DNA from: Deltaproteobacteria bacterium
GTDB taxonomy: Bacteria > Bdellovibrionota_C > UBA2361 > SZUA-149 > JADZAE01
Assembly (NCBI GenBank): GCA_020852715.1
Contig: JADZAE010000034.1
Location: 192,965-256,964 of the forward strand
Direction of reading: 5' to 3'
DNA: 64,000 nt
Below the pieces are notes generated by a model. That model was not told the origin of the DNA, ran no database searches, and saw nothing but the letters and a program-made list of their open reading frames with translations. The position numbers were made by a program, and so were the translations under genes. This document shows positions 17,434-62,400 of the stretch, piece by piece. The first letter of the stretch is position 1, and each line of letters starts with the position of its first letter.

Positions 17434-17988
17434 TTATACACGCTCGATATACTCGCCACTGCGGGTATCGATCTTTACCATTTCTCCTTCATTAACAAAC
17501 AGGGGCACTTGCACTTTGGCTCCTGTTTCTAAAGTCGCCGGCTTGGTGGCACCAGTAACCGTGTCCCCCTTAACCCCCGGCTCACAATAGGTAATTTTTA
17601 GATTTACAAAAGATGGCAAATCAATATTTAAAACCTCACCACTCATCATCAAGATCTTAACCATCATATTTTCGGTAAGATAATATTTACTGTCTCCAAT
17701 CACCTTCTCGGAAAGGGAAATCTGCTCATAACTTTGAGTATCCATAAAATGATAGTCGCCATCACAATAAAGAAACTGCATCTCAACATCTGAAATATCA
17801 GGCTTATCAACTTTTTCACCTGACCTAAATGTCCGCTCAATAACACTGCCATCACGTAAGTTCCTGATTTTAGTGCGCACGAAAGCGCCACCCTTGCCCG
17901 GCTTTACATGTTGAAAATAGGTAATTGCGTAAGGCTTACCATCAAGCAGAATCTTTAATCCGTTTTTAAAATCATTAGTTGAATACAT
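17434..17988 (-). CDS. efp: Elongation factor P
   Basis: N-terminal FKNGLKILLDGKPYAI...VKPGKGGAFVRTKIRNL matches the KOW domain of EF-P. 184 aa. Confidence 0.9.
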   Translation of the reverse strand: MYSTNDFKNGLKILLDGKPYAITYFQHVKPGKGGAFVRTKIRNLRDGSVIERTFRSGEKVDKPDISDVEMQFLYCDGDYHFMDTQSYEQISLSEKVIGDSKYYLTENMMVKILMMSGEVLNIDLPSFVNLKITYCEPGVKGDTVTGATKPATLETGAKVQVPLFVNEGEMVKIDTRSGEYIERV

Positions 17989-18165
17989 AACTACTTCCTA
18001 ATTAACAGCTCAATATCTCTAAAATTTATGCATAAATAATCTGTGGGGGTTCTTAACAAAATTTGCTTAAGGAATAAAGGCAGGAATAGTATTAAAATAC
18101 CGCTATATATTCAGTGGGTTACAAAGGATTAGGTGCATAAGTTAATGAGTGACCGGAAAGACTGC

Positions 18166-31096: not shown

Positions 31097-33394
31097 ATGA
31101 AAGAGGTGCGTGACATGAGTATCGGAAAAAAATATTTATTGACCTTAACTGCTTTTGTCTTGCTTACCGGCATGGCATCGGCAAGCGTCGAGGTTGCTAA
31201 TAAAGGCATCGCCAGCGATAGCCTCACCGTTTCCACAGATTTTGATGGTGACGGCAAGGGAGATCTCTTTGCTTACGATCCTTCCATTGGTAAATTTTAT
31301 GTTCGCCGCAGTAGTAATAAAACTGTTGGTAGTTTTATTTTAGGCGGAAAAGGTCTAACCCCGACATTGGGCGATTTTAATGGCGATGGTCGTGGGGATT
31401 TGGCTGTATTTAGCCGCACTTCGGGGAGATGGATAGTGCGTCTCACCGGCATTGCATCATACCGCCTTACTTTAGGGTCACGTGGCGATTATCCGGTTCC
31501 CGGTGACTATTTGGGATTAGGGTGCACTCAATTGGCGACTTATAACCTTAGACGAGGCCGTTGGACCATTGGCAGCTGCGTTAATCCCTCTAGCTCACTA
31601 CAAGTTAAAGCAGCCGCGCCGACAACTGTCACTTTCGGTGGCTCGGCTGGCGGATTGATGGCTGTTCCCTCTGACTATGACTGCGATGGTAGAACGGATC
31701 TCGCGGTTTTTAATCGTTATACCGCTCGCTGGACAATAAAAAAATCCTCGAACAGCGCGACTATATCTTTTAGATACGGGGCAATCGGAGACATGCCTGT
31801 TCCTGCTGATTATCGAGCACAGGGATGCACTCAGGCTGCGGTTTATAAACTTAATACTAACCGTTTTTACGTCTGCAAGGACTGCCGCAACGGAGTAACC
31901 GGCACATCTTATCGCAGCGTTCAGTGGGGATTGTTAGGGGATAGACCGGTATTAGCTAATCCCGATGGAACTCCCGGAGCGAATTACATAGTTTATCGCC
32001 CAAAAGAGCAGAGATTTTATAACTATAGATCGACTAATCCGATGATCATTAGCTCGGCAGCCACTGCCTTAAGCGGTATGCCTGCTAGTTTATTGCCCGT
32101 GTCCCCTCTGCATGTTCTTAATTCCTACCAAAAGGGAGACTATAACCGAGATGGGTTAAGCGATTTTGCCACCGCTGAAGGAAATGACAGTTCGGCGACC
32201 TGGAAAGTCCGCTACAGCATCGACCTAGCTAATCAGCGTAGTGCCATTGTCGCCGCTAAAGGCGATGCCTTGGTCCCTGCTGACTATGATGGTGATGGAG
32301 TAGTTCAGCCGGCCACGGTTACAGCGATTAGTGCTGATGTAATTCGTTGGCGCATTAAGAACCCTTCGGGAAGCGATACAGTTGTCGATTACGGGAAAAA
32401 CGGGGATAAGCCGCTGCCTGGAGATTTCGACTGCGACGGCAAAGCTGATTTGGCCGTTGTGCGCAAGAAAGACGGGATTTTCCTTTTCTGGTATATGCAG
32501 CTTTCTAGTGGCACGAACATCAACGATAAGCTTTTCGGCTTAAATGCTGATTTGCCATTTGTCGGTGATGTTGACGGGGATGGTTGCACAGAAATGGTTG
32601 TCGCTCGTCCGACAGGCACTACTGTTGAATGGTATTATAAGGATATCTACAACAGCACACATAAGATGCTTAGCTGGGGACTACCGACAGACACCGTATT
32701 ATCACCGATGGATATGAACGGAGATAACATCGATGACTTCATTGTCCAACGTGATGTGAACGGAGCTAATGTTGTTTATGTGCGTTATTCACGCTTAGAT
32801 AAGAATAGCTTAAGCTACCCGAACTTCCCTTGGAAGGCGATTAACTTCGGCTTAACAGGCGATGTCACAGCAGTCGGTAACTATGATGGCCCCGGACGTG
32901 CGGAAGTAGCAGTATATCGTCGCAGCACTCCGGCGTACTACTGGAATAAATATCGCTCGCAAACAGTTGTCGTCCCACACGGTGCAGCAACAGACAAAGT
33001 AATTAGACCTGACGGCACTGTTGTTTTACCAGGCGAGACGCCGGGCGGTGGTAGCAATCGTTGCGATGTGAACAAAAGCCCCTATGACGGTGCAAGCAAT
33101 GGTTTTACTTGGAAACCTCATGCCGAGGGAGGAGCTTACGGTGGTCATCCGACCGTCCTTATTCCTTCCGGTTATAGCAGCGTTCGCGAGTTAACATTGT
33201 TATCCTCAAGTGGCGAAGAATTACCTGGTCAACCAAAATTCCGTTACATCCGTCCGGAAGATGGTAGGCCAACGTTCGATAACCCAATGAGCGCAAGCGA
33301 TATGCAAGACTATGCACCGATAACCGTGCTCTTCAATTATGGTGGCAGTAATGTCTGCTACGAAATTGATGATCCGTCGGACCGCCACGACTAA
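31097..33394 (+). CDS. Secreted FG-GAP-like (integrin-alpha-type beta-propeller) repeat protein
   Basis: Signal peptide. About 11 repeats of GDFDGDGKGDLFAY / GDFNGDGRGDLAVF / SDYDCDGRTDLAVF type. Paralogous to the C-terminal parts of ORFs 22729-25572 and 25788-26873. Confidence 0.7.
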   Translation: MKEVRDMSIGKKYLLTLTAFVLLTGMASASVEVANKGIASDSLTVSTDFDGDGKGDLFAYDPSIGKFYVRRSSNKTVGSFILGGKGLTPTLGDFNGDGRGDLAVFSRTSGRWIVRLTGIASYRLTLGSRGDYPVPGDYLGLGCTQLATYNLRRGRWTIGSCVNPSSSLQVKAAAPTTVTFGGSAGGLMAVPSDYDCDGRTDLAVFNRYTARWTIKKSSNSATISFRYGAIGDMPVPADYRAQGCTQAAVYKLNTNRFYVCKDCRNGVTGTSYRSVQWGLLGDRPVLANPDGTPGANYIVYRPKEQRFYNYRSTNPMIISSAATALSGMPASLLPVSPLHVLNSYQKGDYNRDGLSDFATAEGNDSSATWKVRYSIDLANQRSAIVAAKGDALVPADYDGDGVVQPATVTAISADVIRWRIKNPSGSDTVVDYGKNGDKPLPGDFDCDGKADLAVVRKKDGIFLFWYMQLSSGTNINDKLFGLNADLPFVGDVDGDGCTEMVVARPTGTTVEWYYKDIYNSTHKMLSWGLPTDTVLSPMDMNGDNIDDFIVQRDVNGANVVYVRYSRLDKNSLSYPNFPWKAINFGLTGDVTAVGNYDGPGRAEVAVYRRSTPAYYWNKYRSQTVVVPHGAATDKVIRPDGTVVLPGETPGGGSNRCDVNKSPYDGASNGFTWKPHAEGGAYGGHPTVLIPSGYSSVRELTLLSSSGEELPGQPKFRYIRPEDGRPTFDNPMSASDMQDYAPITVLFNYGGSNVCYEIDDPSDRHD

Positions 33395-36412: not shown

Positions 36413-37870
36413 TTATTTATTAAAAAAATAACTGTTTTCTCTAACCAATGTTCCCAGCTGCAAAGCATCCACTATCCCATATACATCTCCCGTCTTCGGG
36501 CTGTGAACAAACACATAATAAGGAGGAATATCTTGCGGGCTGACATTGCCTTCCTGCTTTTGCACTTGCCCGCCAATAACCAAACGCCAATATTCAGCAC
36601 CACCTTTTTGGGCACACTCTATAGTAAAGGCCGGCGTTTCGATTTTCTCTTTCATGTCCGTTGGTAAATAAAACATGACTTGCAAAGTTTTTAGCTGATC
36701 CAAAAAATAATTTATCGCCTGAGAATTAACTTTTTTATCCGCATCTGCCACGCTCCAAATTCCGGCGCTATCAAGTTTAAAGTTTAACGCTCCTTGTGGT
36801 GAGACAACATCAAGTCTCCCTAACTGAGTAGGATCCAGATCAGCAAATGCTTTGTGTAACAGATACTCCCGGGCTTCTTTGGTAAAGGCTTGCTGCAATG
36901 GCGACGACATTTTATAAACCCAAGGCTCAGATTCAAGCTTGGTATAATAATCGGTTTCGTATTCGATTTTACTTAAATCCAGCTTCTCTTTGTTTTCCAT
37001 TTTTTCCAAAACCTTAGGACGCTTAACTGCCCCAAACAAAAAGCGCAGTGCGGACTGCTTAGCATCAGTAAAACGAAACTCAATGGCGAAATCAGCAGGC
37101 TCAAGATTAAAAACTGCCTTTTTTTCCATGGCGATATCCATAAATTTTTCCACTTGAAAAGAGCCGAGTGCCCTGATCGCGTCTTCCACCACTGAGGCAT
37201 CGGCTATTACCTCTCCCTGCGGAGAATAAAACTTCCAGTTACCTGTAGCTTCCTTAACAAATTGCGTTGCCGGACGACCAAAGGGCGTAACAATAACTTC
37301 TTTCACTTCGGCTTTGGGAAGAACATAGGGCGTGGTCTGTCTTATCGCTCCCGGAAGCAAGTCAAAAGCTCTGTGCGTCAAACCATCTATTAAATAAAGA
37401 TTATCATCTCCACTAATTTCCATGTAACGCCTACCGCTGATGAAATTGAGCGCGCCAAAATTTAGTTTCTTCTCACTTTTACCACTACTCAAGATTACGG
37501 TTAGCTCCGGCGGATTTAGCCCATAATTCTGCATATCATCTTTCTTATCGGCAGCCGGAATGCGGGCGGAAATCTTGAGGCTATTAGCAGCCAACAGCAG
37601 CTTTTCTACCGCTTTAGCATCGGTTGGTGCACCGGGAGGATCCATTAGAACCCAGTGATTACCTAGTCGATCGGGCTTATCTGCTTTTTTAATAGCAAAA
37701 TATTCGTCTTTGCGCTGAAAGCTGACAAGGTTAATTTTATCTGCCTCTAAAACTTGAACCGGGCCGCTGCTCAGCTCATTTGCCTGGTTTATCGGCCGCT
37801 CATACGCCCAGTAATAAGCGAGGCCAAAAGCAAGTAGCACCAGCATAATTAAAGCATTGGATAATTTCAT
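36413..37870 (-). CDS. DUF4340-like periplasmic protein associated with a GldG-type ABC system
   Basis: N-terminal TM/signal. 485 aa. Its conserved position downstream of a GldG-like gene supports the assignment; no motif was seen directly in the sequence. Confidence 0.5.
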   Translation of the reverse strand: MKLSNALIMLVLLAFGLAYYWAYERPINQANELSSGPVQVLEADKINLVSFQRKDEYFAIKKADKPDRLGNHWVLMDPPGAPTDAKAVEKLLLAANSLKISARIPAADKKDDMQNYGLNPPELTVILSSGKSEKKLNFGALNFISGRRYMEISGDDNLYLIDGLTHRAFDLLPGAIRQTTPYVLPKAEVKEVIVTPFGRPATQFVKEATGNWKFYSPQGEVIADASVVEDAIRALGSFQVEKFMDIAMEKKAVFNLEPADFAIEFRFTDAKQSALRFLFGAVKRPKVLEKMENKEKLDLSKIEYETDYYTKLESEPWVYKMSSPLQQAFTKEAREYLLHKAFADLDPTQLGRLDVVSPQGALNFKLDSAGIWSVADADKKVNSQAINYFLDQLKTLQVMFYLPTDMKEKIETPAFTIECAQKGGAEYWRLVIGGQVQKQEGNVSPQDIPPYYVFVHSPKTGDVYGIVDALQLGTLVRENSYFFNK

Positions 37871-37874: not shown

Positions 37875-39470
37875 TCAGTCTTTTGACTTTCTTAACCACC
37901 AAATGGCCAGGCCCACCAATAGTAATAATTCCGGCACATAAATACCGCCGAACAAAAATAGAGCTCTAAACTCAGCTTCACTGATTGCCTTTGTCGAGCG
38001 GCGCATTGAACCGGCACGAATGGTCACAGCATCACCATCTCCCACTACCCAATTAAGCGAGTTAAGAAAAAAGTCTTGGTTAAATAACTTACGAATGGTT
38101 TGGTTATTCACAAATTCAGCATTACCGAAAACGACAACGCGCGTTTCTTTCGCGGTTGTTTGCTCTGTCCCCTCAGGCTGCGGAAACACTCTTTGAAAAG
38201 TGCTGACTACAGAAACCGGTCCGGCTATGTCTTCTTTGTCCTGCTGCGCTTGGGGATTATCACTAAATAGTAGCGCCAAGTTAGTCTCGGCCCAGCTATT
38301 TTTGCCGGTAAGTGCCAAGTCCACTACGCGCCCGCCAGCAACCACTTTCCCTGTTTTTTGTACAGAAGAAGTCAGTCCGAAAATCGCACCATCTTTTGGT
38401 CGCTCCTTGGTGATATCATGCGCCGCAAAAGCCGTAATCATCGGCGATACCCCCAGGCTAGCACCAGAAAAGATTTGCACTATCGGCTCAACGATTATGT
38501 CTTTGCCAATTTCAATACCTAGCGGCTTAACCAAGCGGACAATATCGTCACTGGATTTGGGTTGATGGAGAAATACCATGCGCCCACCGGCAGCCAAATA
38601 ACTCTCAATTGCCTGAAACTCGGTTGGCAACAACTCCTTTTGCGGGCTAGCCAGAATCACGGCAGCAGCATCGGCGGGAATATTGGCGCTGTTACCAATA
38701 TTTAAATCCTTTACTTCATAATTTTCGCCGGCAATGGCGTCTTTCAGAAAGAGATAACCGCTTGCTGCTTTCTCATCCAGCGACGGTTCCCCATGACCGC
38801 TGATGTAATAAATAGGCCGTGCTTTACCACGACTAAGACGGATAATGGCGTTTACTATGTCTTCCTCTTTAAAATCACGAACGAGTTTGGTATCTTTGCT
38901 TTTCTTCTCCCCATCAGGCACTTGGTAACTTAAATGCAAAGTTCTGTTCTCACTGACTCCATATTTTTCCACCAGTGAAGGCTGCTTCTCCGGATCAATA
39001 ACTTGAAAAGAAATAAGACTTGATTGTCTAACTAAGCGTTTAATTAAATCTTCTGTCTTGGGATCATCTACTTTTCCACCCAAATAAAAGGCCCGAATCT
39101 CCAGCGGTGCTGATAGCTTAGCTAAAACATCTATTGTCTGGGGTGCTAAAGTGTAGATTTTTTGCTCAGTGCTATCAAAGCGAAAAAGCTCATGTTTTTG
39201 CGACATATAATTAACAACAATCAGCACGCCGACAAAAAGTAGGGTATAGATAAAAACTGTTAAACTAAAGCTAGCAAGCCGCTTGACGGCGCTGGAACGT
39301 AAGCTTCCCGTACCACCGCCGAGTAAAAAAAGCAGGATAAATATCACTCCCAGCCCTAAATGCGTTAGCGCGATAGTGTAGCTTTCATTGGAAATGATTC
39401 CGGCACAGATCAGACCAAAAGCAATGAGCACAAGACCGGCAATTCCTGAATATTGATAGTTGCGTTTCAT
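37875..39470 (-). CDS. GldG-like ABC-transporter accessory protein
   Basis: 531 aa with N-terminal TM helices and a single C-terminal TM (VPELLLLVGLAIWWLRKSKD), matching GldG topology. Adjacent to an ABC-2 permease and ATPase. Confidence 0.6.
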   Translation of the reverse strand: MKRNYQYSGIAGLVLIAFGLICAGIISNESYTIALTHLGLGVIFILLFLLGGGTGSLRSSAVKRLASFSLTVFIYTLLFVGVLIVVNYMSQKHELFRFDSTEQKIYTLAPQTIDVLAKLSAPLEIRAFYLGGKVDDPKTEDLIKRLVRQSSLISFQVIDPEKQPSLVEKYGVSENRTLHLSYQVPDGEKKSKDTKLVRDFKEEDIVNAIIRLSRGKARPIYYISGHGEPSLDEKAASGYLFLKDAIAGENYEVKDLNIGNSANIPADAAAVILASPQKELLPTEFQAIESYLAAGGRMVFLHQPKSSDDIVRLVKPLGIEIGKDIIVEPIVQIFSGASLGVSPMITAFAAHDITKERPKDGAIFGLTSSVQKTGKVVAGGRVVDLALTGKNSWAETNLALLFSDNPQAQQDKEDIAGPVSVVSTFQRVFPQPEGTEQTTAKETRVVVFGNAEFVNNQTIRKLFNQDFFLNSLNWVVGDGDAVTIRAGSMRRSTKAISEAEFRALFLFGGIYVPELLLLVGLAIWWLRKSKD

Positions 39471-39498
39471 AACTTTAACTTATTAGGCAGTTAATAAT

Positions 39499-40260
39499 CT
39501 ATTGTCTCCAGCGTTGGGCATCAAGCGCACGGTTGGCGATAAAAGCGCCAACTAACATTAAGCTAAGAAAGTAAATAACATCAATGCTCGATAATACCCC
39601 TTTCAAGAAACCAACAGTATGACTAGTCGGGGCAAGATAACGAAGAAACTCTCCGATCACTGTTGGCAGCTTAGTAGCTGGAGCATCAACAACATAAAAT
39701 AAAAGCAGCAATATCAAGCTAACTACCCCGGAAATAACCTGCGAACTAGTAAATGCGGAAACGGCTACGCCCAAAAAGGTAAAGGCGATGGCGAAAAGGA
39801 CTACACCTAAAAATCCGATCAGCACAGGCAAAACTTCAGGGTCAGAAAAGATAATCAAAAGTAAGCTATAGGTAAAGGAAGTTAGGAGCATGAGCACGAC
39901 AATCACCGCTGTCCCTAGTAATTTTCCCCACACCAGCTGAGCAACTGAAATCGGCGAGGTCATTAGAAGTTCAAAAGTGCCATTTTTCTTTTCCTCAGCC
40001 AAGCTACGCATGGTCAGAATGGGAATTAAAAATAACAAAATCACCTCCAGCGTCTGATAGTAAGGTATGATCACCCACTCATTAAGATTGGGCGAAATGT
40101 TACGCATCATAGAAGCTTGAGCCAGCACAGCATTAAACTGCTGCAGCAAACTAAAAAAGAAAAATCCTGAGACGACAAGAAAGCCGGCGCAAATAATATA
40201 AACCAGCGGTGTAACAAAACTACTACGAATCTCTTTTGCTGCAATTCTTAAAATAACCAT
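39499..40260 (-). CDS. ABC-2 family permease (GldF-like)
   Basis: 253 aa with six hydrophobic segments. Lies between the ABC ATPase and the GldG-like gene. Confidence 0.7.
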   Translation of the reverse strand: MVILRIAAKEIRSSFVTPLVYIICAGFLVVSGFFFFSLLQQFNAVLAQASMMRNISPNLNEWVIIPYYQTLEVILLFLIPILTMRSLAEEKKNGTFELLMTSPISVAQLVWGKLLGTAVIVVLMLLTSFTYSLLLIIFSDPEVLPVLIGFLGVVLFAIAFTFLGVAVSAFTSSQVISGVVSLILLLLFYVVDAPATKLPTVIGEFLRYLAPTSHTVGFLKGVLSSIDVIYFLSLMLVGAFIANRALDAQRWRQ

Positions 40261-40272
40261 TGTTATTTACCC

Positions 40273-41109
40273 TTAACCATTAACAACATTCCCCACATAT
40301 TTCTCTGAAGCAACAGCCTCTAAAAAGCGCTGCTCTAAAGTCTTTTCTTTAGTCAGCTCAGCGAAATCACCTTCGACGACTATGCACCCCCGGGCAATAA
40401 TCAGCACACGCGAGCAGACTTCCGCCACCTCTTGCAAAATATGGGTGCTTAAAATCACCGTGTGATCACGTCCCAGGCTCTTGATCAATTGGCGTATCTC
40501 AATAATCTGCGCCGGATCCAGGCCGCTAGTTGGTTCATCGAGAATTATCACTTTGGGGTTATGTATCAGCGCCTGGGCCAAACCCACACGTTGGCGATAA
40601 CCCTTAGAGAGTTCGCCGCATAAGCGCTTGGCGCTTTGTGTTAATGCACAGCGCGTTAACATGTCATCCACCGCTTCTTTTATTTTCTTGCCACTTATGC
40701 CTTTAATGCCAGCGACAAAGCTTAGGTATTCCTCTACTGTCAGCTCCGGATAAATCGGCGGGGTTTCCGGTAAATAGCCAATTTGCTTACGCACTTCTTG
40801 GGCCTGCTTATTGATATCATAACCGCAAACTTTAGCTGTGCCGCCGCTCGGTGGAAGATAAGTGGTTAACATGCGCATGGTTGTGGTTTTGCCAGCACCA
40901 TTTGGCCCGAGCAAACCAACCACCTGCTTATCTGCAATCTTGAAGCTCACTCCGGCAACTGCTTCTAGCTCTCTGTAGCGCTTAGATAAATTAAATGTCT
41001 CAATCATAAGTCCTTGCTTCTGATGGATTTGGCACGCCGATGGAAACACTGCGGGCAATGTGCCAATAACTTTGATATGTCTGAGGTAATAAATTCCCTC
41101 AGCTTTCAT
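40273..41109 (-). CDS. ABC transporter ATP-binding protein (GldA-like). True start probably the internal Met at about 41007.
   Basis: Walker A GPNGAGKTTTMRML, signature LSKGYRQRVGLAQAL, Walker B VIILDEPTSGLD. The first 34 codons of the ORF look like read-through before MIETFNLSKRY. Confidence 0.8.
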   Translation of the reverse strand: MKAEGIYYLRHIKVIGTLPAVFPSACQIHQKQGLMIETFNLSKRYRELEAVAGVSFKIADKQVVGLLGPNGAGKTTTMRMLTTYLPPSGGTAKVCGYDINKQAQEVRKQIGYLPETPPIYPELTVEEYLSFVAGIKGISGKKIKEAVDDMLTRCALTQSAKRLCGELSKGYRQRVGLAQALIHNPKVIILDEPTSGLDPAQIIEIRQLIKSLGRDHTVILSTHILQEVAEVCSRVLIIARGCIVVEGDFAELTKEKTLEQRFLEAVASEKYVGNVVNG

Positions 41110-43738: not shown

Positions 43739-44833
43739 CTACCAGGCGTAGGAACCCGAACGATACTCCACCCTCGCCACCTCCCCCTTAGCCTTATCGG
43801 CGGGCAAAAAAGTAACACGCGTTGGCAAGCAGGGAATTTGCAAAGAAAGGGCCCATTGGCGCCAGAAGTTATTACGTTCTGAATATTTTACGGCGGGATC
43901 ATCAATGCCCATATCGAAGTTACTGGGAAGTGCGTACGGAATAACTAAAGTCTTAGCGCCGCGGACTTTACTAACTTGGGAATAGTCAGTGGGATTATAC
44001 CAAGTGGCCTCATATTTTTTAAGATGTGGTCCCCAAGTGGCTAAAGGACGCATTTCTATTTTTGACTCACGACAAATATTCAGAGTTTTCATTTCAGGAT
44101 AGCCATCGGTATTGAGTTGAAAAATAGATTCGCTTTGTTGTTGTTCGGCCAGCGCCTCGTCCGCAGTGGTCTCCGGAGTAGTATCTCCTTGGTTAGAATA
44201 ATAAGAGCGCATAGTCATTAACGTAAGCACGTTTATTAATTGCGTCTTTTCCTCTGTGGGCTTTTCGTTCTCATCGTCATAATAGTAATCAGTGTCGGCT
44301 TGGTAATCTTCAAAAGTATAATCGCGAAAAGCCTCATCCTGCTCGGGGCTAGAACCGGTATTAGTCGTATCAAATAACGGCGTTACATTCTTCTGCTGAA
44401 TAAGAGGAGCGGCGGAGCTTGATGAGCAACCCATAGCCGTCATGCAAAATTTGTTTTTCTTTTTTGGCAGGACTTCTAACAAAGCAGTTTGTATGTCTTT
44501 TACCGGAATAGAAAGTAGGTCTTCAGGATCACAGCGCATAAAAGGAATGGGTTTGGTAAAATCTAGTTTTTCCGAGCAATTTATCGGCTTAACATCCTCA
44601 AGATCAGCGCTGATCTCATCAAGATTTAGTTCGCTTTCGTCTTTATTGGTATCTTCGCTAGCATAAGGAGAAGCTCCCGGTTTTTGTGCCTCGCTGCCAG
44701 GTTTCGAAAATAAATAATCACTGCGCACATTGTTAGTGTTTTGGGCAAAAGAAATAGGTAATGCAACACACAGCAGCAGGATGAGGACAACAATTGCATG
44801 ACTCTTTAACAATTTTGATAATTGACTATCCAT
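43739..44833 (-). CDS. Secreted acidic low-complexity protein with conserved C-terminal domain (paralogue A)
   Basis: Signal peptide. Asp/Glu/Pro/Thr-rich middle. C-terminal about 100 aa (...WYNPTDYSQVSKV...IPCLPTRVTFLPAD...) is similar to the C-terminus of ORF 47439-48512 (...YYDASDYKQVQKA...VECLPTSVEFVQAE...). Confidence 0.5.
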   Translation of the reverse strand: MDSQLSKLLKSHAIVVLILLLCVALPISFAQNTNNVRSDYLFSKPGSEAQKPGASPYASEDTNKDESELNLDEISADLEDVKPINCSEKLDFTKPIPFMRCDPEDLLSIPVKDIQTALLEVLPKKKNKFCMTAMGCSSSSAAPLIQQKNVTPLFDTTNTGSSPEQDEAFRDYTFEDYQADTDYYYDDENEKPTEEKTQLINVLTLMTMRSYYSNQGDTTPETTADEALAEQQQSESIFQLNTDGYPEMKTLNICRESKIEMRPLATWGPHLKKYEATWYNPTDYSQVSKVRGAKTLVIPYALPSNFDMGIDDPAVKYSERNNFWRQWALSLQIPCLPTRVTFLPADKAKGEVARVEYRSGSYAW

Positions 44834-44851: not shown

Positions 44852-47422
44852 TTATTGCCAACCACCTGTATTACCACCAGCATTGCCACCGCCATCTAAT
44901 CCGCCAATACTTCCCCAATTAATCATAGGTTGCCCGCCCTGCTGCTGAATAACCATATTCAGCATATCCATAAGCGGGTCATTTGGATTCTTCTTTTTAC
45001 TTGGTTGGCGGGGGGGGTTACTGTTTTTACCGCAACCGCGATCAGAACCAACAGGGCCCCAAATCGCTTCGCATTTTGCGCGATTTGCCCGGTTCACGGT
45101 TCCAACAAATGGATAAATTTGATAGGCCGAACAGGCATAAGGGAAATCTGCCGGAAAGCCTTTTCTTACAGTCCCATAAAGCTTATCTTTGGTGGGGAAC
45201 TCATCTCCTTGATCACGCCAAGGGTTAGAGCCAAAGGCATTATAGGCTTGGCAACCCCAACCTTTCTTTTTAATAGGCAGATTATCTTCGATAATTGAGC
45301 GATACTGACAAGAGCAGGCTGTTCTTCTATTCCAGAACATCAAGCGTACAGAACCCAAATGCCATGACTGCATCAGATCGGCAGGAAATTCCGCATGATT
45401 TTGCTCCCAGACCCAGGGGACATCTATACCTGAATCTTGAGATTCAGAAGATGAACTACTGGAACTGAAGCCGGAAGAAAGCTGATTATACATATAAGGT
45501 GTCGAGCTGGCGCTAGACGAACTTTGGCTACTAGACTCAAAGGTTACATCTTTGGACTTCATTTCCCCTTTGTCGCTAGGATTCATGCGAAAGCAACGAC
45601 TCACTTTAGGGTAAACCAACTGCAGTTTATCAATATACATTTTCCTAGCCGAGGGATCTTTGCCAAAAAAATCAGTAAATAGCGGTAAGCCTACATGCGG
45701 CACATAAGGAATATTATGTCGCGGCCAGTTATATTGTGTCGGATATTTCTCACGCATTTCTTGCACAAGTTCTAAAAAACGGCGCGCAGCTACAGTCGCT
45801 GAGGTTAACGGATGATGGAAACCACAAACTGTATTGGTTGGCGTCCAAAGAATAGAGCCGTGATAATAACAAAACTCACAATCCCCCTTATCCACCTTTC
45901 CCTGCCCAAATAATCCCGCTAGTGGCGATTGGGGAATGGCATTATTAAACAGCTCTTCACCGCCAACTTTACCCGAGATGTTGCCAAACAATGGATCAGG
46001 AACACCGGCCATATTAGACCAAATTTCGTGGCGACATTTTAGGCATTTATTGATCATCGGTAAAGCTGCTGCTGTTCCACCAAAATACTTTCCCTGAGCA
46101 GCCATCATTTCCTGGGTAGTGACTTCAAATTTAAAATCGCCCATTCCGGGGATACCGGAAAAGTCAGGATGCTCGCCGCGCTTATATTTGTCCTTATTTA
46201 CAAACTGCGTCATGATAGGCTGGCGCCAGAAACGAGCATATTCCGGATATTCTTCTGACCAAGCAACGGGACGAAACTTCTTTTCTAAGTCACCATTTTT
46301 AACCGGTTTATCGGGGAGCGAATCAAGAAAGCAAGGGATATTATTTTTCCAGATATAACCGTTCCACCAATAAGGCCGACTGCAGCAACCTTTACGACAT
46401 CTATAAAACCAGCAACCGTCGGCACCATGACCCGCTCGGCTTTTAGGCCAAGTATAATTAGAGGCTGTGACCTTAGGACGGTAAATATGCGCTTCGAAAG
46501 TCTGGCACTGATCAAGTGGGCTTATACCTCCGGTATGTGTTTGGCCTTTGCCTAATTTCGCCAACGGCCCTTGATAAACATCTTCAATATTCGAAGATTT
46601 ACCTTCCATATCCAAGGCACGGTTAGTTTCAGTTACATTCTTTTCATATTCCGGATAAAAGCTCGAGTCTTTACGTTTGATCAAAGACTTAGTGGATAAA
46701 TCAGGTCGATTAAAAAGCTCTATTGGTTCGGGGTTCACTGCGCTGACACCAAAGTTATTGACGTCGATTTCCCATTCCGGCCACCAATACTCCCAGATCT
46801 CTCCGGGGTTACGACGCGGCATACAGTCGTTAAATGGGTAAACGATTTTCGGCTGACAATATTCACAGTTTTGTCTTTTTAAACGTGGCTCAAAGCATTC
46901 ATGAAACATTTGCCAACCGGCACGACTGGCTTCTCTTGCCGGCGCCGCTTTAGGATTATACTGAAGGTTTGGGTTGGCTAATAATTCTTTCTGGGTTGGC
47001 TTTTTGGGTGCCTCAATATCTTTGGCTACTCCGGCAGGACCTAGAATAGCAACGGTAGAATCAGCTGACCAGTCACCTCCTGAGTATTTGATGTCGCGCC
47101 CATCGCGCCACGGATGTTCTTCAAAAGAACGCTCTTCGATGTTGCTTTTTATGTGTTTGGCCAACTCGCTGGCATCATATTGATAGCTAGGTTCCATCGC
47201 TCTACCCACAGCCTCTTTAACGCGCTGATGCATTATCGGATTATCAATAATCGCACCCGGGTTGTTAATCGTAGCACCTGGGATTGCGCCCCCGGTTGGT
47301 GCAGCTGTAGGCCCGGGATTGTTGATCGTCGGATCACCGCCAACCGTATTATCCATCCACTGTGCCCTAGCCTGACCATAACCTAGTAAAACAAATAAAA
47401 TTGCCACAATTAATTTCTTCAT
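44852..47422 (-). CDS. Large secreted Cys/Trp/Pro-rich protein of unknown function
   Basis: Signal peptide. 856 aa with about 30 Cys in clusters (CEYCQPK, CWFYRCRKGCCSRPYWWNGYIWKNNIPC, CLKCRHEIW, CEFCYYHG). Very high Trp/Tyr content. A Ser-rich tract. A C-terminal Gly/Asn-rich tail. Confidence 0.55.
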   Translation of the reverse strand: MKKLIVAILFVLLGYGQARAQWMDNTVGGDPTINNPGPTAAPTGGAIPGATINNPGAIIDNPIMHQRVKEAVGRAMEPSYQYDASELAKHIKSNIEERSFEEHPWRDGRDIKYSGGDWSADSTVAILGPAGVAKDIEAPKKPTQKELLANPNLQYNPKAAPAREASRAGWQMFHECFEPRLKRQNCEYCQPKIVYPFNDCMPRRNPGEIWEYWWPEWEIDVNNFGVSAVNPEPIELFNRPDLSTKSLIKRKDSSFYPEYEKNVTETNRALDMEGKSSNIEDVYQGPLAKLGKGQTHTGGISPLDQCQTFEAHIYRPKVTASNYTWPKSRAGHGADGCWFYRCRKGCCSRPYWWNGYIWKNNIPCFLDSLPDKPVKNGDLEKKFRPVAWSEEYPEYARFWRQPIMTQFVNKDKYKRGEHPDFSGIPGMGDFKFEVTTQEMMAAQGKYFGGTAAALPMINKCLKCRHEIWSNMAGVPDPLFGNISGKVGGEELFNNAIPQSPLAGLFGQGKVDKGDCEFCYYHGSILWTPTNTVCGFHHPLTSATVAARRFLELVQEMREKYPTQYNWPRHNIPYVPHVGLPLFTDFFGKDPSARKMYIDKLQLVYPKVSRCFRMNPSDKGEMKSKDVTFESSSQSSSSASSTPYMYNQLSSGFSSSSSSSESQDSGIDVPWVWEQNHAEFPADLMQSWHLGSVRLMFWNRRTACSCQYRSIIEDNLPIKKKGWGCQAYNAFGSNPWRDQGDEFPTKDKLYGTVRKGFPADFPYACSAYQIYPFVGTVNRANRAKCEAIWGPVGSDRGCGKNSNPPRQPSKKKNPNDPLMDMLNMVIQQQGGQPMINWGSIGGLDGGGNAGGNTGGWQ

Positions 47423-47438: not shown

Positions 47439-48512
47439 TCACTCCCAAACCTTAGCCCCGGTGCGTGTCTCTAAATAATTACCATCTTCAGCCTGCACAA
47501 ACTCCACACTAGTTGGTAAGCATTCAACGCCGGAAATCACTGCAAACTCCGACCAAAAATCGTAGTTATTAGGGTTAGCATAGTCATAATCCACAGCCTT
47601 AGGATTATAGGCCACCACATGTTTCTTGGAATTTTTTGCCTTTTGCACCTGTTTATAATCGCTAGCATCGTAATAAACGGAGTTATAAAGCTGCACGCCT
47701 AAAGACAGACTGCCTAGAGGATCTCGCTTAACTGTCGAAGCAGCACATGGCGGTAAAGAATAATCCGGCTCATACTTGGGCGTTTTCTCCGTGTTTTCGT
47801 CTTCCTTGCTATCGCTATCTTCGTCCTCGTCATCATCTTCTTCAGTCTGCTCTAACCAGCCGCGCGAAGCAGTGGCCGTAGGCGCTTGCACTGGTTGTCT
47901 AACAGTTGTAGTTGTCGCTGATGGCTGTCTTGTTAAGTTACTCCAATCATTCGCGCCTTTCTTATTGCCACCATCATCAGCCACTGCTGGTGGCGTTTTT
48001 TCTGTATTTTGCGTGCCTTGATTAGCATTCCCCCAAAGACGATTATCTGATCTGGGTTCAGTTTTTACCGCCGGCTGCGTAGTTACGTTGTCGCGTGGAG
48101 CAAATACATCTCTGCCGGGCAATGGCTGCATTGCTGGTCTTTGCGGCTGAGTGACTACCGGTGGCGGAGTTTGTTTATCGTTCTCTGCTGCTGGAGCATT
48201 GTTATTCATAAGGTTATCAAGATAATTTCTCATATCGCCGGGAAGGGGCTTAGCTGTCGGGACAGTATTTACAGTCGGAGCCGGCGGAGCAATAGGCAAA
48301 GCTCTGCTTGGAGCTTGTTGCGCTGCGCGATTGGCATTTTTAATGATATCATCAACAGAAGAAGACGGTTTAGAAGGTTGAGTTCTTGGTGACGGTTCAG
48401 GACCGAATGCAGACTCTCCATAAGCCGTGAAATTAACAGCCAGCAAAGCTAGTGATGCTACCGTCAATAAAAGAAGCAGATAGGAAAATTTAACTCGACC
48501 GTTCATCAACAA
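47439..48512 (-). CDS. Secreted Pro/Thr/acidic low-complexity protein with conserved C-terminal domain (paralogue B)
   Basis: Signal peptide. Pro/Thr/Gln-rich region and a DDDEDEDSDSKEDE acidic block. The C-terminal domain is shared with ORF 43739-44833. Confidence 0.5.
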   Translation of the reverse strand: MLMNGRVKFSYLLLLLTVASLALLAVNFTAYGESAFGPEPSPRTQPSKPSSSVDDIIKNANRAAQQAPSRALPIAPPAPTVNTVPTAKPLPGDMRNYLDNLMNNNAPAAENDKQTPPPVVTQPQRPAMQPLPGRDVFAPRDNVTTQPAVKTEPRSDNRLWGNANQGTQNTEKTPPAVADDGGNKKGANDWSNLTRQPSATTTTVRQPVQAPTATASRGWLEQTEEDDDEDEDSDSKEDENTEKTPKYEPDYSLPPCAASTVKRDPLGSLSLGVQLYNSVYYDASDYKQVQKAKNSKKHVVAYNPKAVDYDYANPNNYDFWSEFAVISGVECLPTSVEFVQAEDGNYLETRTGAKVWE

Positions 48513-48950: not shown

Positions 48951-51002
48951 TCATGGAAATAGATAGGGGATTAACTCCTTACCGCTGAGTCCAGCACCGA
49001 AATATAGGGGCTTTTCAGGATAGAGCTGATTGTAATGCGTTTGCTTTGCTTCATAGGTGCTGATGCGCTCTTGCTTAAGAATTTCGCTCCACTGGGCTAC
49101 TTCCTTAAGATAATTAAGATTAATGCTTGCCCGCGATTGAAAATCTAGGTCATTCGATACTGCCCAAAACTGAGAGGCTAGGTGCAGGGCCAAAATAACA
49201 GTAAGGCATTTTCTAGCTAAGGCGTTTTTTAACTTAGCATCTGAGATAATATAGTAAGCAAAGATGCAGATCCCAACAAAAGCTAAGTGCTGATAACGTA
49301 ACGATAAAGATTGCTGATAACAGTAAATCCAGCGCCCTATAGCCGGTAGCAGCAGAGAAATAATAAGCCAAGCCTGAGATATTAGATATACGCCTATAAC
49401 GCTGCGGTTATTCTTTTTGGTTTTAAAAGTCAGCCCCATGGCCAGCAAAGACACAAGCAGACCACAAAGAGCAAGCGTGATTTCCGGAAAATATCGGATA
49501 AAGGGCACTGCATTTAAAAGTTCATTCGGCGCATAAAGCGATAAAAACGGAAAAAGCCCCAAGCCACGTAAAATAGTTCCTAATTGTGAACCAATAAAAA
49601 GATAAGCCAAAAAACGCCGAACTATTTTTCCCGTACTAAATTCGCTGGCCATAGTAGCTTGCGCGCTTGGCGCCTGCAGGACCTCGGTAAACATATAAAG
49701 CACCAACACAAGCACAGCAGCAAGCATAGAAATTATTCCCAGCCTAAGCACGGCGCGGCGATTAAAATGACCGTTAATCGCCAACTCCAAAATGCAAACT
49801 AGCCCCACTAAAGCAAAGGCGGCTAAGCCATTGCCAAAGGACAAACAAGCAAGTAAAAGAAGAATATTTGCCTTAATTAAGGCCAGAGATTTATTTTCGC
49901 GAAGATACTGCAAGCCAAAACAAAAGCCCCAGAGCACAAAAACCTGCATCAACAACAAGCATTGAACAAAAGGCCATTGCAGCACTTCAGCTTGCAAACA
50001 GCTTATGGCAAAGAACAACAAAAGCATGCGCCGAGTAATAGTATTACTATTTTTGTAAAACAACGCGGCCAGAAATTTATCCAATGATAAAACGCTAAGC
50101 ATAAACAAAAGATAAGTCACGAGCGAATAACCTAAATACCAACTACCGAATACCTTAAGCTGAATAAAATATAAGGCAAAGAAAAGCGGAATAAAATGCT
50201 CATTATGACTTTGAAAAATCATACGCCACCCTTCGTCCACGCTCTTTATCAAAATATTCCATTCATCAGCATAAAAAGACAAAGGCATCTTAAAATGAAC
50301 CAAGGCACTTAGCGCCAGCACAAGCAAGGCAAAATTAGCAGTTTTTGTTAAATACGGCCCACATTTAAGAATAAACAAAGCAAGCGCAGCACCCAATAAA
50401 ACACAAATAACCAGGCGGCCACCTTTGAGCGGCTGAACCCAAGCGTCACCAGCTGCGGCACGAAAGAAATTCAAGCGCCGCTTAACTGTCAGCTGTTGAA
50501 AAACAGCACTGGCAGCGCTCACCTGTATATAAACATCTTTACCAATATGCTCAGGGGAAACAGTAAACTGAAAAGGTATAAAATACTTTTTCTGTTCTTC
50601 ATTTACTATCGATAAGGGAACAATAAATTGCGCAATTTGCTCGCCGTCTTTGCTCTTTACTTGCAGCTTAAAATCGGCACGACTTTTGTAAACAAATTCT
50701 ATGATGTTTCGAGTCAATTTGAAGCTCGACGAGCGACAAAATTCTTGTGCAATAATCGCATCGCCTTGAAAATAGCATTCCCTACGCTCCGGCCTAGCGC
50801 CCTGTTCCCAATTAAGACCAATGAAAGAATCATAATCAGCCGTCGGATAAACAAGTAGCAAACGATAAAAAATCACCGCCGCCAGAAACAGTAAAAGCCA
50901 GGTAATTTTCTTAATAGTTGGTGACACCGGGTTCCTTAAATTTTCACAATTTAACCCAGGCGGTCGTATAGCAGTATGGCTAATAAAAGCCAAAGCCTGC
51001 AA
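48951..51002 (-). CDS. Polytopic membrane protein (about 14 TM) with N-terminal extracytoplasmic domain. Possibly a GT-C-type glycosyltransferase.
   Basis: 683 aa. One N-terminal TM, a soluble domain of about 150 aa, then many TM helices. FYADEW acidic motif in an early loop. No family assignment possible by eye. Confidence 0.5.
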   Translation of the reverse strand: MQALAFISHTAIRPPGLNCENLRNPVSPTIKKITWLLLFLAAVIFYRLLLVYPTADYDSFIGLNWEQGARPERRECYFQGDAIIAQEFCRSSSFKLTRNIIEFVYKSRADFKLQVKSKDGEQIAQFIVPLSIVNEEQKKYFIPFQFTVSPEHIGKDVYIQVSAASAVFQQLTVKRRLNFFRAAAGDAWVQPLKGGRLVICVLLGAALALFILKCGPYLTKTANFALLVLALSALVHFKMPLSFYADEWNILIKSVDEGWRMIFQSHNEHFIPLFFALYFIQLKVFGSWYLGYSLVTYLLFMLSVLSLDKFLAALFYKNSNTITRRMLLLFFAISCLQAEVLQWPFVQCLLLMQVFVLWGFCFGLQYLRENKSLALIKANILLLLACLSFGNGLAAFALVGLVCILELAINGHFNRRAVLRLGIISMLAAVLVLVLYMFTEVLQAPSAQATMASEFSTGKIVRRFLAYLFIGSQLGTILRGLGLFPFLSLYAPNELLNAVPFIRYFPEITLALCGLLVSLLAMGLTFKTKKNNRSVIGVYLISQAWLIISLLLPAIGRWIYCYQQSLSLRYQHLAFVGICIFAYYIISDAKLKNALARKCLTVILALHLASQFWAVSNDLDFQSRASINLNYLKEVAQWSEILKQERISTYEAKQTHYNQLYPEKPLYFGAGLSGKELIPYLFP

Positions 51003-51077: not shown

Positions 51078-51434
51078 GCGCTGAGTCTTATACAAGAGTC
51101 GTAAAAACGTGCCTTCGTGATTAATTTTTGCAACACCCTCGGCCATGCCGCCACGGGGGTAGATAATTTTGCAACCGCTTGTGGAACGCGACCCATCTTT
51201 GGAAGCGAAGCGAACAAAGTGGGTCGCCTGCGCCCAATAGTTACACGGCATTTGGCGGCTTAGCCACATACCGCAGCTGGCATTTCCAGCCTCGGCGCCT
51301 CAGATCTTCCGGCCTACAGCCTCCAGATCATGCCGCGCGTTCCATAGCGCACGCGGCTTTTCCATGAGCCGATGGCGCTTACGCGTGCTGCTCCAGAGTA
51401 ACGCATTTGATGGACTTGTGTATAAGACTCAGCA
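51078..51434. mobile_element. MITE-like element of the same family, flanked by inverted IS50-OE-like repeats
   Basis: Left gcgctgagtcttatacaagagtc (forward). Right acttgtgtataagactcagc (reverse complement of GCTGAGTCTTATACACAAGT). Interior 51245-51414 is the reverse complement of 33518-33690 at about 90% identity, including the Tnp C-terminal remnant. Confidence 0.55.
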
Positions 51435-51634
51435 GCAATCGGAAGCCCAGTAGCGGCTCTCGACCCCCGAAGTCCAACAACGTATCCACCCAAAATTCCA
51501 TAATACAGGCGGCTACGATTTTGGGCCGAATACGAGGAAGACGAGTGGCGAGCACCGCAAGTGTAGTAAACTACTCGCGGAGCGCAGCCACGAAGTCTGA
51601 CAAAGTAGTCGGCCAAAAGCGTAACCGCCTGCCC

Positions 51635-51970
51635 TTAGCTGACGCTGACCTCGGATACAAGGGCCAACACCTCCTTCGTCTCCACAATTCTCAAATCCTC
51701 ATCCCACGCTACGGCCACGCCGGCATGTTCGGGAATTAAAACGACAGAGCCGTTGGGAATGCCGCTGATATTGGCTTCTTCTTCTGTTTCATCATCCACG
51801 GCCTTGGCTACTTCCAGCACATCGCAAAGAATACTTTCCTTGCGATTAGAACGAGCCGTTTCGGGTAAATATAATCCGGCGTCAGTTTGACTGGCTGCCT
51901 TTCTGACTTTTACCAAAATCCGCATACCGAGCGGATGAACTTTTCTGATTTTCTTGCGACTAGAAGCCAT
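51635..51970 (-). CDS. Cpn10/GroES-family co-chaperonin-like protein (no adjacent groEL)
   Basis: HPLGMRILVKV...TDAGLYLPETA...GSVVLIPEHAGV...EVLALVSE aligns with GroES (PLHDRVIVK...SAGGIVL...GDIVIF...DILAIVE). Confidence 0.55.
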   Translation of the reverse strand: MASSRKKIRKVHPLGMRILVKVRKAASQTDAGLYLPETARSNRKESILCDVLEVAKAVDDETEEEANISGIPNGSVVLIPEHAGVAVAWDEDLRIVETKEVLALVSEVSVS

Positions 51971-59464: not shown

Positions 59465-62400
59465 CTAGCGCGCTTGTTGCAAGGTTTGTAAAGCCGCTTC
59501 GATGGCTTTTAGGCGTTCGTCTTGTTGAGAAATTTGCAGGCGCTGTTTTTCGATTTCTTCTTTCTGTTTGGTGATTTCTTCATTTTGCTTAGCTAGGTCT
59601 TCTTTTTGCTGCGCAATGACCTTTTGTTGTTCTTGCAGGGCCGATACCAGTATTGCCTCCATACCGCTAGGATTATAGGTTAAGTAGCCATTAGGATCAG
59701 TGCCAATAAATTCCGGTATTATCTTTTCTACTTCTTGGGCGATAAAACCATAATGCTCTTTTTCATTTTCACCGCCGTATAACTCTTTCATCTTGTCGTT
59801 ATATTTAAACTTAACCGGATTTAAAGCGAGCACTTTAGCCAAGCCATCATTAACCTCGCCTAATATATTTTTTAACCTGCCATCAGATGTTGCCGCCCAG
59901 GTATTTCCGCCTTCGGTCTTATAAGCATCCCCCACTACATGCAAAGCCTGAGAGGGAGTATTGGTGCCAATACCAACCTCATTATCTGCGGCATCGACAT
60001 ACAAAGTATTGGAATCAACATTAAGACCGCCAAAGGCCACAGTAGAGGTAGTCGTTAAATGTTGGCCGGTATTATATGCTAGCTGCGTATCACCTACAGA
60101 ATCAGCAGTGATCGAGACGGTCACCGTATCTGTCGCTCCCGCACTCGTTGTTATACCGGTGCCTGCCGCAATCGTAACAGTATCGCCATTGGCAATTGTC
60201 TGAGTAGAACCGCTAGTGCCCGCTAGCTGAAAACTGCTCATGCCGCTTTGCGCCGAAGCACAAGTAAATGCACCGGTCGAATCAATATTAGAAATACCGT
60301 AAGTGCAAGGACCACCATCAAAGAAATTAGAAGCATCGGCACTGTCATAGAGATTATCCAGCTCCGCACCGCCAACAACCTCTAACTTACTAGTTGGCCC
60401 ATTTGTTCCCACACCAACATTACCCGTCCCATTTGGCATAAGAGCAATATGCTGATTGGAAACTGTCGTAATATCGTTTGTCACGCCAGAGAAAACTAAG
60501 CTGCCGGTCATGGTATCACCAGCATCTAAAACGAAGGCGGCCGCATGTGAACCATCAACAGTATCGGCATCTACTGATCCGCCAGTCCCGGCGGCTGACC
60601 AGCTTAGAGCTCCGCTGCTGTTGGAAGTTAAATATGCCGAGGCTGCTGGTTTTGCGCTTGGTAAGGTGTAAGTTGTGCTTTCGGACATCGCCGCATTCGG
60701 CTGGAAAACGACGTTGTAGTCTGTCGCACCTTGTTCTGAGTATATTGTCAGTGATCCATCTGCACCGTTGCTACCCAACTGCAGAGCATTATTCACTGTC
60801 AGCGTCTTGGTAACGACTGTGCTGCCTACTCCGACATTACCCGTAACTACTAAATCTCTAATCGCTCCGGTATTACCAATGCCCACATTACCTGTTCCGG
60901 CAGGAACTAACAGCAGATCTTCATTTCCCGCGGTGACAATGTCAGAAACAGCACCATTTAAAGTAAGCGCTCCCGACACCTGCAGCTTTGTTGTTGGCAT
61001 GGTAGTACCAATACCAACATTTTCACTGCTATTAATAGTTACAGCAATAGCATCCGAGCCATCGCTGATGCCGCTATCTGCTAAATTTGCACCGCTGTGC
61101 TTTACTAGGCGATTATCTGTTGTGGCAGTGATATTATGGCCATCGACTGACGTCGCGTCACCGGCAAATGTAGTTGCCGTTAAAGTTCCAGAACTTGGAT
61201 TAAACGTTAGTTTGCTAGAAGAAACTTTCTGCGCCTGATTTCCGGATGCTGTCGTAACCCAAGTAGGATACATTGTGGCGTTCGTGGTCGTATCATCAGT
61301 AATCGCCGTATTCGTTGCATTAGTCGCTGTGGTCGCCGTGTCCGCATTGCCGATTAAGGATCCAATAAAACTTGTCGCGTTAACTGAACCATTTACTTCC
61401 AACTTCTGCGTTGGCGCAGTAGTACCAATACCGACATTTCCCGTGCCGTTTGGCATAAGAGCAAGATGCTGATTAAGGCCTGTCGTAATATCGTTTGTCA
61501 CGCTAGAGAAAACTATATTTGAGTTGGCGCCAGACATGGTTAAGGCACCGGTCATGGTATCACCAGCATCTAAAACGAAGGCGGCCGCATGTGAACCATC
61601 AACAGTATCGGCATCTAGCCCGCCACCCGAACCTTCCGCCGTAAACGTAAGTCCATGCACATTGCTCGTCGCGGTACTGTGACTAGCAGCACTGTCCCAA
61701 TTTGCGCTGTTATCAGTGATTGTAGAGTAAGTACTAGCGCCCGTTCGTTTTAATAGCCCCGTCGTGCTAAATGTTCCATCCAGCTCATCACCGCTAACTG
61801 TATCATTAGTAGAATCAATACCATCAGCATCCAAGAAACCGGTCTTTAATACTGATGTGGTAGCACCATCGCAATATTCGAGGGCACCGCTATCTAAAAC
61901 TTGCATTTTGCCTTGGTTGCTAGCGCCGCAAGTTAAGCTAGTAGACCCACCATCTGTTAAGAAAGCTGCCTCCGTGGAAGCAGTGTTCACAGTAGGAGTC
62001 CAGCCTTCTCCCGCTGACCCGGAGACCACAATACCAGCTCCACCTGTAACACTAAGAACATAATTTCCGGTGGTATCAGTTCCTAAGGCAACAGCATTAG
62101 CCGCAATGGCAACAGTTCCCGTTGTGCCAATAGTCGCATCACCATTCATCGTTACTAGTGCCGGCGCATAAGGACTAGCTCCAGTAACAAAAACTTGACC
62201 AGAGGCAGTTCCATTAGACAAAGAAACTGTCTTTGTTGCACCTTCTCCATCCGCTCCGCTCACGGTAATCTGCCCCATAGTTCCGGCAACTGTTGCCACG
62301 TAGTTACCAGTTGTATCTGTAGTTAGCGCTACAGCATCGTTAGCGATAGTAGCACCGACAGATCCGGGACCACTAGCAGTAACATCACCGGTTAGCGCAG

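Follow-up and report, generated by a model that had tools for sequence, protein, structure and literature searches.

A rare family of large exported proteins with a probable remote TraU-like core, encoded away from conjugation genes in uncultured Deltaproteobacteria

We analyzed a gene at positions 44852-47422, on the minus strand, of a 64,000-nucleotide window (positions 192,965 to 256,964 of contig JADZAE010000034.1, assembly GCA_020852715.1) from an uncultured Deltaproteobacteria bacterium; all coordinates below refer to this window. Our data indicate that its 856-residue product very probably holds a remote TraU-like core with large insertions, and that it is not a member of PF06834 (TraU) by Pfam's own criterion. 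We propose, with a probability of about 0.6, that the gene belongs to a conjugation-independent chromosomal module in which an enlarged TraU homologue and exported partners with two further domains, M and C, would form a periplasmic complex. Judged from sequence comparison, what would be new is a divergent, enlarged branch of the TraU superfamily with partner domains of its own in a non-conjugative setting. TraU itself is an exported periplasmic protein of approximately 330 residues with approximately 10 conserved cysteines. It ranks among the least understood parts of F-type systems, with no solved structure and no known activity (PMC7555446, PMC4027160), and TraU-type proteins have been described only within the mating-pair formation systems MPF_F and MPF_G (PMC4027160). 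Our full-text literature searches turned up no account of a TraU-like protein that stands alone.

The open reading frame (ORF) runs for 856 codons from an ATG start to a stop codon at 44852-44854, and the plus-strand frame of the same interval is riddled with stops. A preliminary description, made from the letters of the window, had placed an 856-residue protein here; the frame and its start are present, and the strand is to be read as minus. The product is identical to the NCBI entry 'MAG: hypothetical protein IT292_04670 [Deltaproteobacteria bacterium]', from a metagenome-assembled genome (MAG), on a 258-kb contig. A word-indexed search of 5.8 billion proteins recovered the protein itself and only three homologues (55%, 33% and 33% identity), and repeating it with a 57-sequence alignment returned the same four proteins and nothing further. 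HMMER with the four-sequence profile, run against 1.84 billion representatives of clusters at 50% identity, gave 71 clusters at E ≤ 1e-3, of which 30 also passed E ≤ 1e-30, with most members 600-900 residues long. The clusters that we looked up were metagenomic singletons whose sole names were 'hypothetical protein' from Deltaproteobacteria MAGs, and a scan of a genome collection contributed one Bdellovibrionales MAG carrying a family member (locus L006). The 856-residue protein belongs to a rare, metagenome-only family, with identities among homologues of 22-64%, and its ORF is a real gene with intact homologues in independent assemblies. A paralogue of 1143 residues, IT292_03950 (P0015), lies on the same 258-kb contig approximately 144 locus tags from IT292_04670.

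The idea of a relationship to TraU arose from reading the conserved motifs of the family; it was handled as a lead and then tested. When 57 family members were scanned at E ≤ 1, PF06834 was the sole Pfam family matched by more than one member (9 of 57, best E = 0.005). The family consensus matched it with E = 1.8e-4 and 21.4 bits and a fragment, P0034, with E = 1.4e-5 and 25.1 bits; P0018 and P0004 match as well, and these four matches all fall at profile positions 196-304 of 306. Profile-profile comparison with hhalign against 33 fairly similar TraU sequences gave E values of 0.002 to 8e-4 over approximately 160 columns and a score of 35.9, compared to 17.1 ± 3.1 (maximum 26.7) for 60 column permutations and 15.7 for the reversed profile. 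A homologue search with the TraU alignment gave only close TraU sequences; diverse ones were taken from plasmid records. The C-terminal 121 residues of P0034, searched by tblastn at E ≤ 10 against 72,556 plasmids (7.3 Gb), had one match, at E = 6, inside the annotated traU of Bermanella marisrubri pBma45. With six diverse sequences added (Bermanella marisrubri, Diaphorobacter, Acinetobacter, Porphyrobacter, Vibrio alginolyticus and Raoultella; 39 in total), the match became much stronger, with a probability of 87.8%, E = 3.3e-6 and a score of 53.6, compared to 16.3 ± 2.6 (maximum 23.9) for 100 permutations and 13.8 for the reversed profile. The real score therefore lies approximately 14 standard deviations above the permuted controls. 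In a second hhalign run, made with the standard comparison tool, the probability was 70.4% with E = 3.9e-5, and residues 385-703 were placed onto F TraU 161-328. Profile-profile homology to TraU was found; the match covers TraU 161-334, and the part of the protein that corresponds to TraU's C-terminal half spans residues ~384-705 (45308-46273, minus strand).

The family resembles F TraU (PF06834, 330 residues) in being exported, in having multiple cysteines, and in motifs that are colinear over TraU 161-328. Within residues ~384-705 the matched family motifs are W-S/T-E...W-R, CYxxGsxLxPxTxxxxGxxxPLTSAxxxARR, DKLQxVYPxxSxCFR and FWNRRTAC. The TraU motif TE..P.W has a colinear counterpart in the 856-residue protein, while C.GSQGS.YP..G......P.Q...L..ER of TraU pairs with CY.GG..L.P.TG...G...PLTSA...ARR of the family, RYQM..P....C.P with DKLQ.VYP..S.CFR, and W-R-K-R-N-C with W-N-R-R-T-A-C. 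Of the 13 family-conserved cysteines of this 856-residue protein, only those near C518, C610 and C703/705 fall beside TraU residues, namely C215, C294 and C327. When the N-terminal halves were compared alone by hhalign, EYWWPE..IDVNN of the family fell onto IGYWEP..DVTR of TraU with a score of 23.1 and E = 0.009, above all 100 permuted controls (13.7 ± 2.5, maximum 21.7), and this match is colinear with the C-terminal one. The block concerned, which aligns with TraU 'IGLxIGYWEPxALTDVTR', comprises residues 205-223, NPGEIWEYWWPEWEIDVNN (46754-46810, minus strand). A by-eye pairing of the family cysteine cluster at residues 173-200 with TraU C-x11-CWxC-x-FP was not reproduced by global hhalign, and we make no claim for it.

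Several results weigh against a TraU homologue. The 856-residue protein itself has no Pfam match even at E ≤ 10, no family member scanned reaches the PF06834 gathering cut-off of 26.5 bits, and the hhalign probability is 70-88% and not above 95%, so that the resemblance reads as convincing over the C-terminal half of TraU only. The link is visible only to profile-profile comparison and to the broader Pfam model. Compared to F TraU, the 856-residue protein is approximately 2.5-2.6 times as long and carries large insertions as well as extensions at both termini, and several cysteines that are invariant in TraU are unmatched in the family, which scores under the Pfam cut-off. Alternatively, the resemblance could be convergent or due to chance. 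The protein would then represent a new fold with no relation to TraU, perhaps that of an enzyme or a redox protein whose conserved histidine, cysteine and tryptophan residues make up an active or cofactor site. This explanation gains from the lack of a direct match, from the empty Foldseek searches described below, and from the family hidden Markov model (HMM), which in HMMER searches of the F and pYJ016 Tra proteins did not single out TraU from the others. It also gains from histidine, aspartate and glutamate columns that are invariant in the closest homologues, including H103, H174, H296, H312, H332 and H536-H537. However, the Pfam HMM and hhalign agree on both the family and the region, the match strengthened as TraU diversity was added and stands far above permuted controls, and several motif blocks are colinear, so we consider chance or convergence unlikely. 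An enzymatic role would in any case be compatible with homology to TraU, since the activity of TraU itself is not established.

Conventional annotation offers little to set beside TraU. Direct Pfam and NCBIfam scans of the 856-residue protein and of its three same-strand neighbors had no match, sequence searches of the PDB with both family profiles (4-sequence and 57-member) had none either, and an NCBIfam scan of the 57 members gave scattered single matches only. The preliminary description, which saw no recognizable domain and could place the protein in no family, was correct as far as direct scans and ordinary searches go; profile-profile comparison does detect the remote relationship to TraU. 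As a hit to a characterized family this is half clear, being remote, below the cut-off and in a non-conjugative context. Separately, P0032, a 284-residue family fragment, has a weak match to PF07996 'T4SS' (VirB5-like; E = 0.005, residues 44-86). This match, the sole other one related to a type IV secretion system (T4SS) among family members, lies on a short N-terminal helical stretch and is probably coiled-coil noise.

An AlphaFold2 model built from the 57-member alignment has a confident core (predicted template modelling score 0.77; 209 residues with a predicted local distance difference test score of at least 90), and low confidence is confined to extensions and insertions. Foldseek found no similar structure to the model in the PDB or in BFVD, that is, among solved or viral structures. 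We found no PDB entry for TraU, which is why these fold searches would come back empty.

We found that the family gene nearly always adjoins a gene for an exported protein that carries domain M, domain C or both. In the window it is flanked on both sides on the minus strand. The upstream neighbor, 16 bp away (47439-48512), encodes a 357-residue exported protein with a signal peptide and a low-complexity region, in which a long Pro/Gln-rich disordered region is followed by domain C (residues ~223-357; 47442-47846). The downstream neighbor, 18 bp away (43739-44833), encodes a 364-residue exported protein, also with a signal peptide and a low-complexity region, and ends in a paralogous domain C (residues ~229-364; 43742-44149). 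Domain C is the C-terminal domain of approximately 110 residues common to these two proteins (E = 9e-12 between them). The same three-gene arrangement recurs in locus L002, which encodes the 55%-identical homologue. Elsewhere, domain C occurs in the downstream gene (L001, L005, L006, L012/L013, L018 and L029), and partners with domain M were found at L001, L003, L005, L006, L009, L010/L011, L012, L015/L016, L018 and L029, and in the upstream gene at L007. The two domains are either fused, M then C, or split over consecutive genes. Locus L029 (positions 10001-18589) holds two convergent paralogous three-gene modules, one encoding a TraU-like protein of 730 residues, an M+C protein of 427 and a C protein of 309, the other a TraU-like protein of 890 residues, an M protein of 311 and a C protein of 192; the whole module has therefore been duplicated there. 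A scan for promoters and terminators in the module gave counts no better than chance.

Domains M and C have no Pfam match. Sequence comparison hints that they weakly resemble TrbC and TraW, the partners of TraU. Using 8-sequence TrbC and TraW profiles and 150 permutations per pairing, hhalign aligned domain M with TrbC at the strand '..F.qf.v..VP..V' (score 19.9, E = 0.025) and domain C with the C-terminal part of TraW over 61 columns (score 22.1, E = 0.012). Each of these scores exceeds 150 of 150 permutations, whereas the cross-pairings fail, with 19 of 150 and 54 of 150 permutations reaching the real score. The hint fits what is known of TraU loci. All eight bona fide TraU loci that we fetched show the order traW-traU-trbC. 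R27, SXT and Rts1 encode TrbC and TraW as one polypeptide next to TraU (PMC12999216, PMC10838148), and TraW is reported to contact TrbC as well as TraU, the latter in a two-hybrid assay (PMC12999216). In the fused proteins (TrhW of R27, TraW of SXT and Orf216 of Rts1) a TrbC-type part precedes a TraW-type part, as M precedes C in the family partners. Like TraU, the family has a neighboring gene that hints at a TrbC/TraW-like domain. Unlike these fusions, the window partners have domain C only, preceded by long disordered regions, and their resemblance to the fusions is marginal (E 0.01-0.03). Homologues of TraU, TraW, TrbC and TraF have been reported from just one other T4SS class, that of the MPF_G integrative and conjugative elements (ICEs) with Tfc proteins, of the ICEHin1056/PFGI-1 type (PMC4027160), showing that these proteins travel as a set; the MPF_G TraU homologues, compared here by description, sit in complete T4SS loci, unlike the family. 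This part of the proposal has points against it as well. Both similarities are weak (E = 0.025 and 0.012) and have no Pfam or tblastn backing, tblastn of the M+C consensus against plasmids having found no match. An earlier hhalign comparison of domain M with 2-sequence TrbC and TraW alignments gave no support, and the window's own partner proteins are without domain M.

The composition of the protein raises another explanation, that it is a TraN-like or other cysteine-rich outer-membrane adhesin or mating-pair stabilization protein. Compared to the 41 other window ORFs of at least 150 residues, it is enriched in cysteine (22 residues, 2.6% versus 1.15%), tryptophan (27 residues, 3.15% versus 0.97%, approximately threefold, with 2.07% in the next-highest window ORF) and proline (69 residues, 8.1% versus 4.1%), while tyrosine shows no enrichment (35 residues, 4.1% versus 3.7%). 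The preliminary description was accurate on tryptophan and on cysteine and proline richness, and the three peptides that it quoted were located at residues 213 (WWPEWEI), 350 (PYWWNGYIWKNN) and 668 (VPWVWEQNHAEF). Tyrosine does not belong in its list, approximately 30 cysteines proved to be 22, and the recurring CxxC/CxC clusters were overstated, as there are three CxxC motifs (residues 186, 460 and 515), one CxC (703) and one CC (346). Over 57 members 13 of the 22 cysteines are conserved (C176, C186, C189, C200, C346, C364, C460, C518, C610, C703, C705, C724 and C784), along with tryptophans W105, W213/214, W388, W399 and W697, and the remaining nine cysteines are lineage-specific. The most conserved cysteine cluster in the family alignment, with C176, C186, C189 and C200, is FHECFEPRLKRQNCEYCQPKIVYPFNDC (residues 173-200; 46823-46906, minus strand). 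Reading by eye predicts a Sec-type signal peptide at residues 1-20, MKKLIVAILFVLLGYGQARA|QW (47363-47422, minus strand), in which the sequence has no lipobox cysteine, and every family member inspected has a signal-like hydrophobic N-terminus. On these grounds a disulfide-rich secreted protein, as first suggested, is reasonable. The poly-Ser tract and the Gly/Asn-rich tail are also present. The former is an insertion of low complexity within the TraU-like region (residues ~630-664; 45431-45535, minus strand), lineage-specific and missing from the three closest homologues; the latter (~829-856) ends a C-terminal tail of low AlphaFold confidence (residues 804-856; 44855-45013, minus strand). Both the tract and the tail are of low confidence in the model and predicted to be disordered.

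A signal peptide, many conserved cysteines and low-complexity Ser- and Gly/Asn-rich segments would suit an adhesin, as would the other likely surface proteins in the window, with VWA, FG-GAP and S74-fibre domains. TraN is integral to the outer membrane and has an extracellular domain. With 22 cysteines, it is like the 856-residue protein large, exported and cysteine-rich, and it works in the same machinery as TraU. However, Pfam scans of the 57 members at E ≤ 1 had no match to TraN, adhesin, Ig-like or beta-helix families in any member, and the family profile scored F and pYJ016 TraN below zero and failed to single out either. The match that recurs is to TraU, a periplasmic protein, and the AlphaFold model has neither a repeat architecture nor a beta-barrel. 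We consider an adhesin or TraN-like protein quite unlikely; the suggested likeness to cysteine-rich mating-pair proteins in the preliminary description pointed to the right machinery and the wrong protein.

We next consider the genomic setting, which bears on whether an F-type or ICE conjugation system once integrated here and left the gene behind as a decaying, non-functional remnant. The closest relatives known for the protein act in conjugation, and TraU-type genes are normally confined to MPF_F and MPF_G (PMC4027160), as a remnant would predict. In contrast, the ORF is intact and conserved over 22-64% identity with its cysteines and motifs kept, single genomes or contigs retain paralogues, and partner genes co-vary. 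Its flanks are housekeeping genes: the window encodes SecA, a class A penicillin-binding protein (PBP1), the biotin carboxylase AccC, GlmS, GlmU and an ADP-forming acyl-CoA ligase, as well as a GldA/F/G-like ATP-binding cassette (ABC) system and an SNF2 helicase, and its GC content is flat throughout. Pfam and NCBIfam scans found no T4SS genes, integrase, relaxase or T4SS ATPase in the 64-kb window. A remnant is thus very improbable. The gene is not encoded in an F- or G-type T4SS cluster, and the family differs from TraU in having no traW/trbC tra operon and no T4SS genes nearby and in lying in chromosomes of uncultured 'Deltaproteobacteria' or Bdellovibrionales MAGs, and not on plasmids or ICEs. 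At the 13 distinct homologue loci that we read, there was no VirB4/TraC, relaxase or other T4SS gene, and neighbors included DHDPS, MetRS, UvrD, ClpB, DnaJ and an ammonium transporter. Against a conjugation-independent module it must be said that the absence of a T4SS covers only 64 kb of the source genome.

Other features of the surroundings were recorded. A 683-residue polytopic membrane protein is encoded upstream of the module (48951-51002, minus strand), and its membership of the module is doubtful. It has no Pfam, NCBIfam or PDB match, and its C-terminus shares 62% identity with a gene fragment that L002, the only locus with this synteny, has at the corresponding place. A GT-C-like activity of this protein on the Ser-rich or low-complexity partners is pure speculation. 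Two further features were noted at 51635-51970 (minus strand) and 51314-51739: a 111-residue ORF just upstream of glmS, GroES-like by eye only, and, between it and the gene of the 683-residue protein, a stretch of approximately 600 bp with only short overlapping ORFs on both strands. On the other side of the module, the ABC system like GldA/GldF/GldG (37875-41109, minus strand), followed by a DUF4340 protein (36413-37870, minus strand), scores well under the NCBIfam equivalog cut-offs; it lies 2.6 kb from the module with the oppositely oriented CoA ligase between, and this neighborhood is not conserved in other loci. At L012 (3107-9431; GCA_028689495.1), type IV pilus/T2SS genes lie upstream of the family gene in divergent orientation; they encode an MshEN/T2SSE ATPase, T2SSF, a sigma-54 activator and an N_methyl prepilin-like protein. 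This arrangement, which is not conserved at the other loci, may connect the module with type IV filaments at this one locus.

The window also encodes large proteins that are probably at the surface or secreted. A cluster comprises an S8 subtilase with CarboxypepD_reg and FG-GAP (947 residues; 22729-25572, minus strand), a VWA protein (871 residues; 27570-30185, minus strand) and an FG-GAP repeat protein (765 residues; 31097-33394, plus strand). A MIDAS/VWA adhesin acts in Bdellovibrio invasion (PMC11003981). A protein of 1507 residues (59465-63988, minus strand) has a C-terminal Peptidase_S74 domain, an endosialidase intramolecular chaperone (residues 1368-1427), and the prey-recognizing 'mosaic adhesive trimer' fibres of Bdellovibrio share the S74 architecture (PMC10769870). 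By this analogy the S74 fibre protein hints at a Bdellovibrio-like predator as host, and the hosts of the family are probably Bdellovibrionales-like or 'Deltaproteobacteria'.

We propose that the 856-residue protein would be an exported, disulfide-stabilized envelope protein whose core is a very distant, enlarged TraU homologue. Since the gaps are 16 and 18 bp, its gene and the two flanking domain C genes would be co-transcribed, and the three products would be secreted by Sec and oxidized in the periplasm. There, in the periplasm or in association with the outer membrane, they may form a complex comparable to the TraU-TraW-TrbC group of F-like systems. That group associates with the apparatus on its outer-membrane side and promotes the production of pili and the transfer of DNA (PMC7555446, PMC10939261). 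As no secretion channel is encoded nearby, such a complex would have to serve another envelope process, and Bdellovibrio-like bacteria may have turned it to an envelope function other than conjugation. Given the probable Bdellovibrionales hosts and the S74 fibre protein in the window, our guess, by analogy, would be a role in predator-prey contact or in surface-filament dynamics. A more specific proposal, possible but doubtful, is that a TraU-like, a TrbC-like (M) and a TraW-like (C) protein form a trio that either descends from the F group or is ancestral to it. In predatory Bdellovibrio-like bacteria this trio would be a self-contained, T4SS-free chromosomal module for the envelope, with cell-cell contact, entry into prey or the dynamics of some other surface filament as examples of its role.

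Our analysis defines three families or domains without current annotation, namely the TraU-like family and domains M and C, restricted to rarely sampled and probably predatory bacteria. F-type conjugation machines spread antibiotic resistance. A conserved and duplicated chromosomal relative of TraU would show that the TraU fold has a job outside conjugation, and the module would offer an independent, simpler system for testing what TraU does. If the more specific proposal is true, the trio would be a minimal natural system for finding what TraU, TraW and TrbC do.

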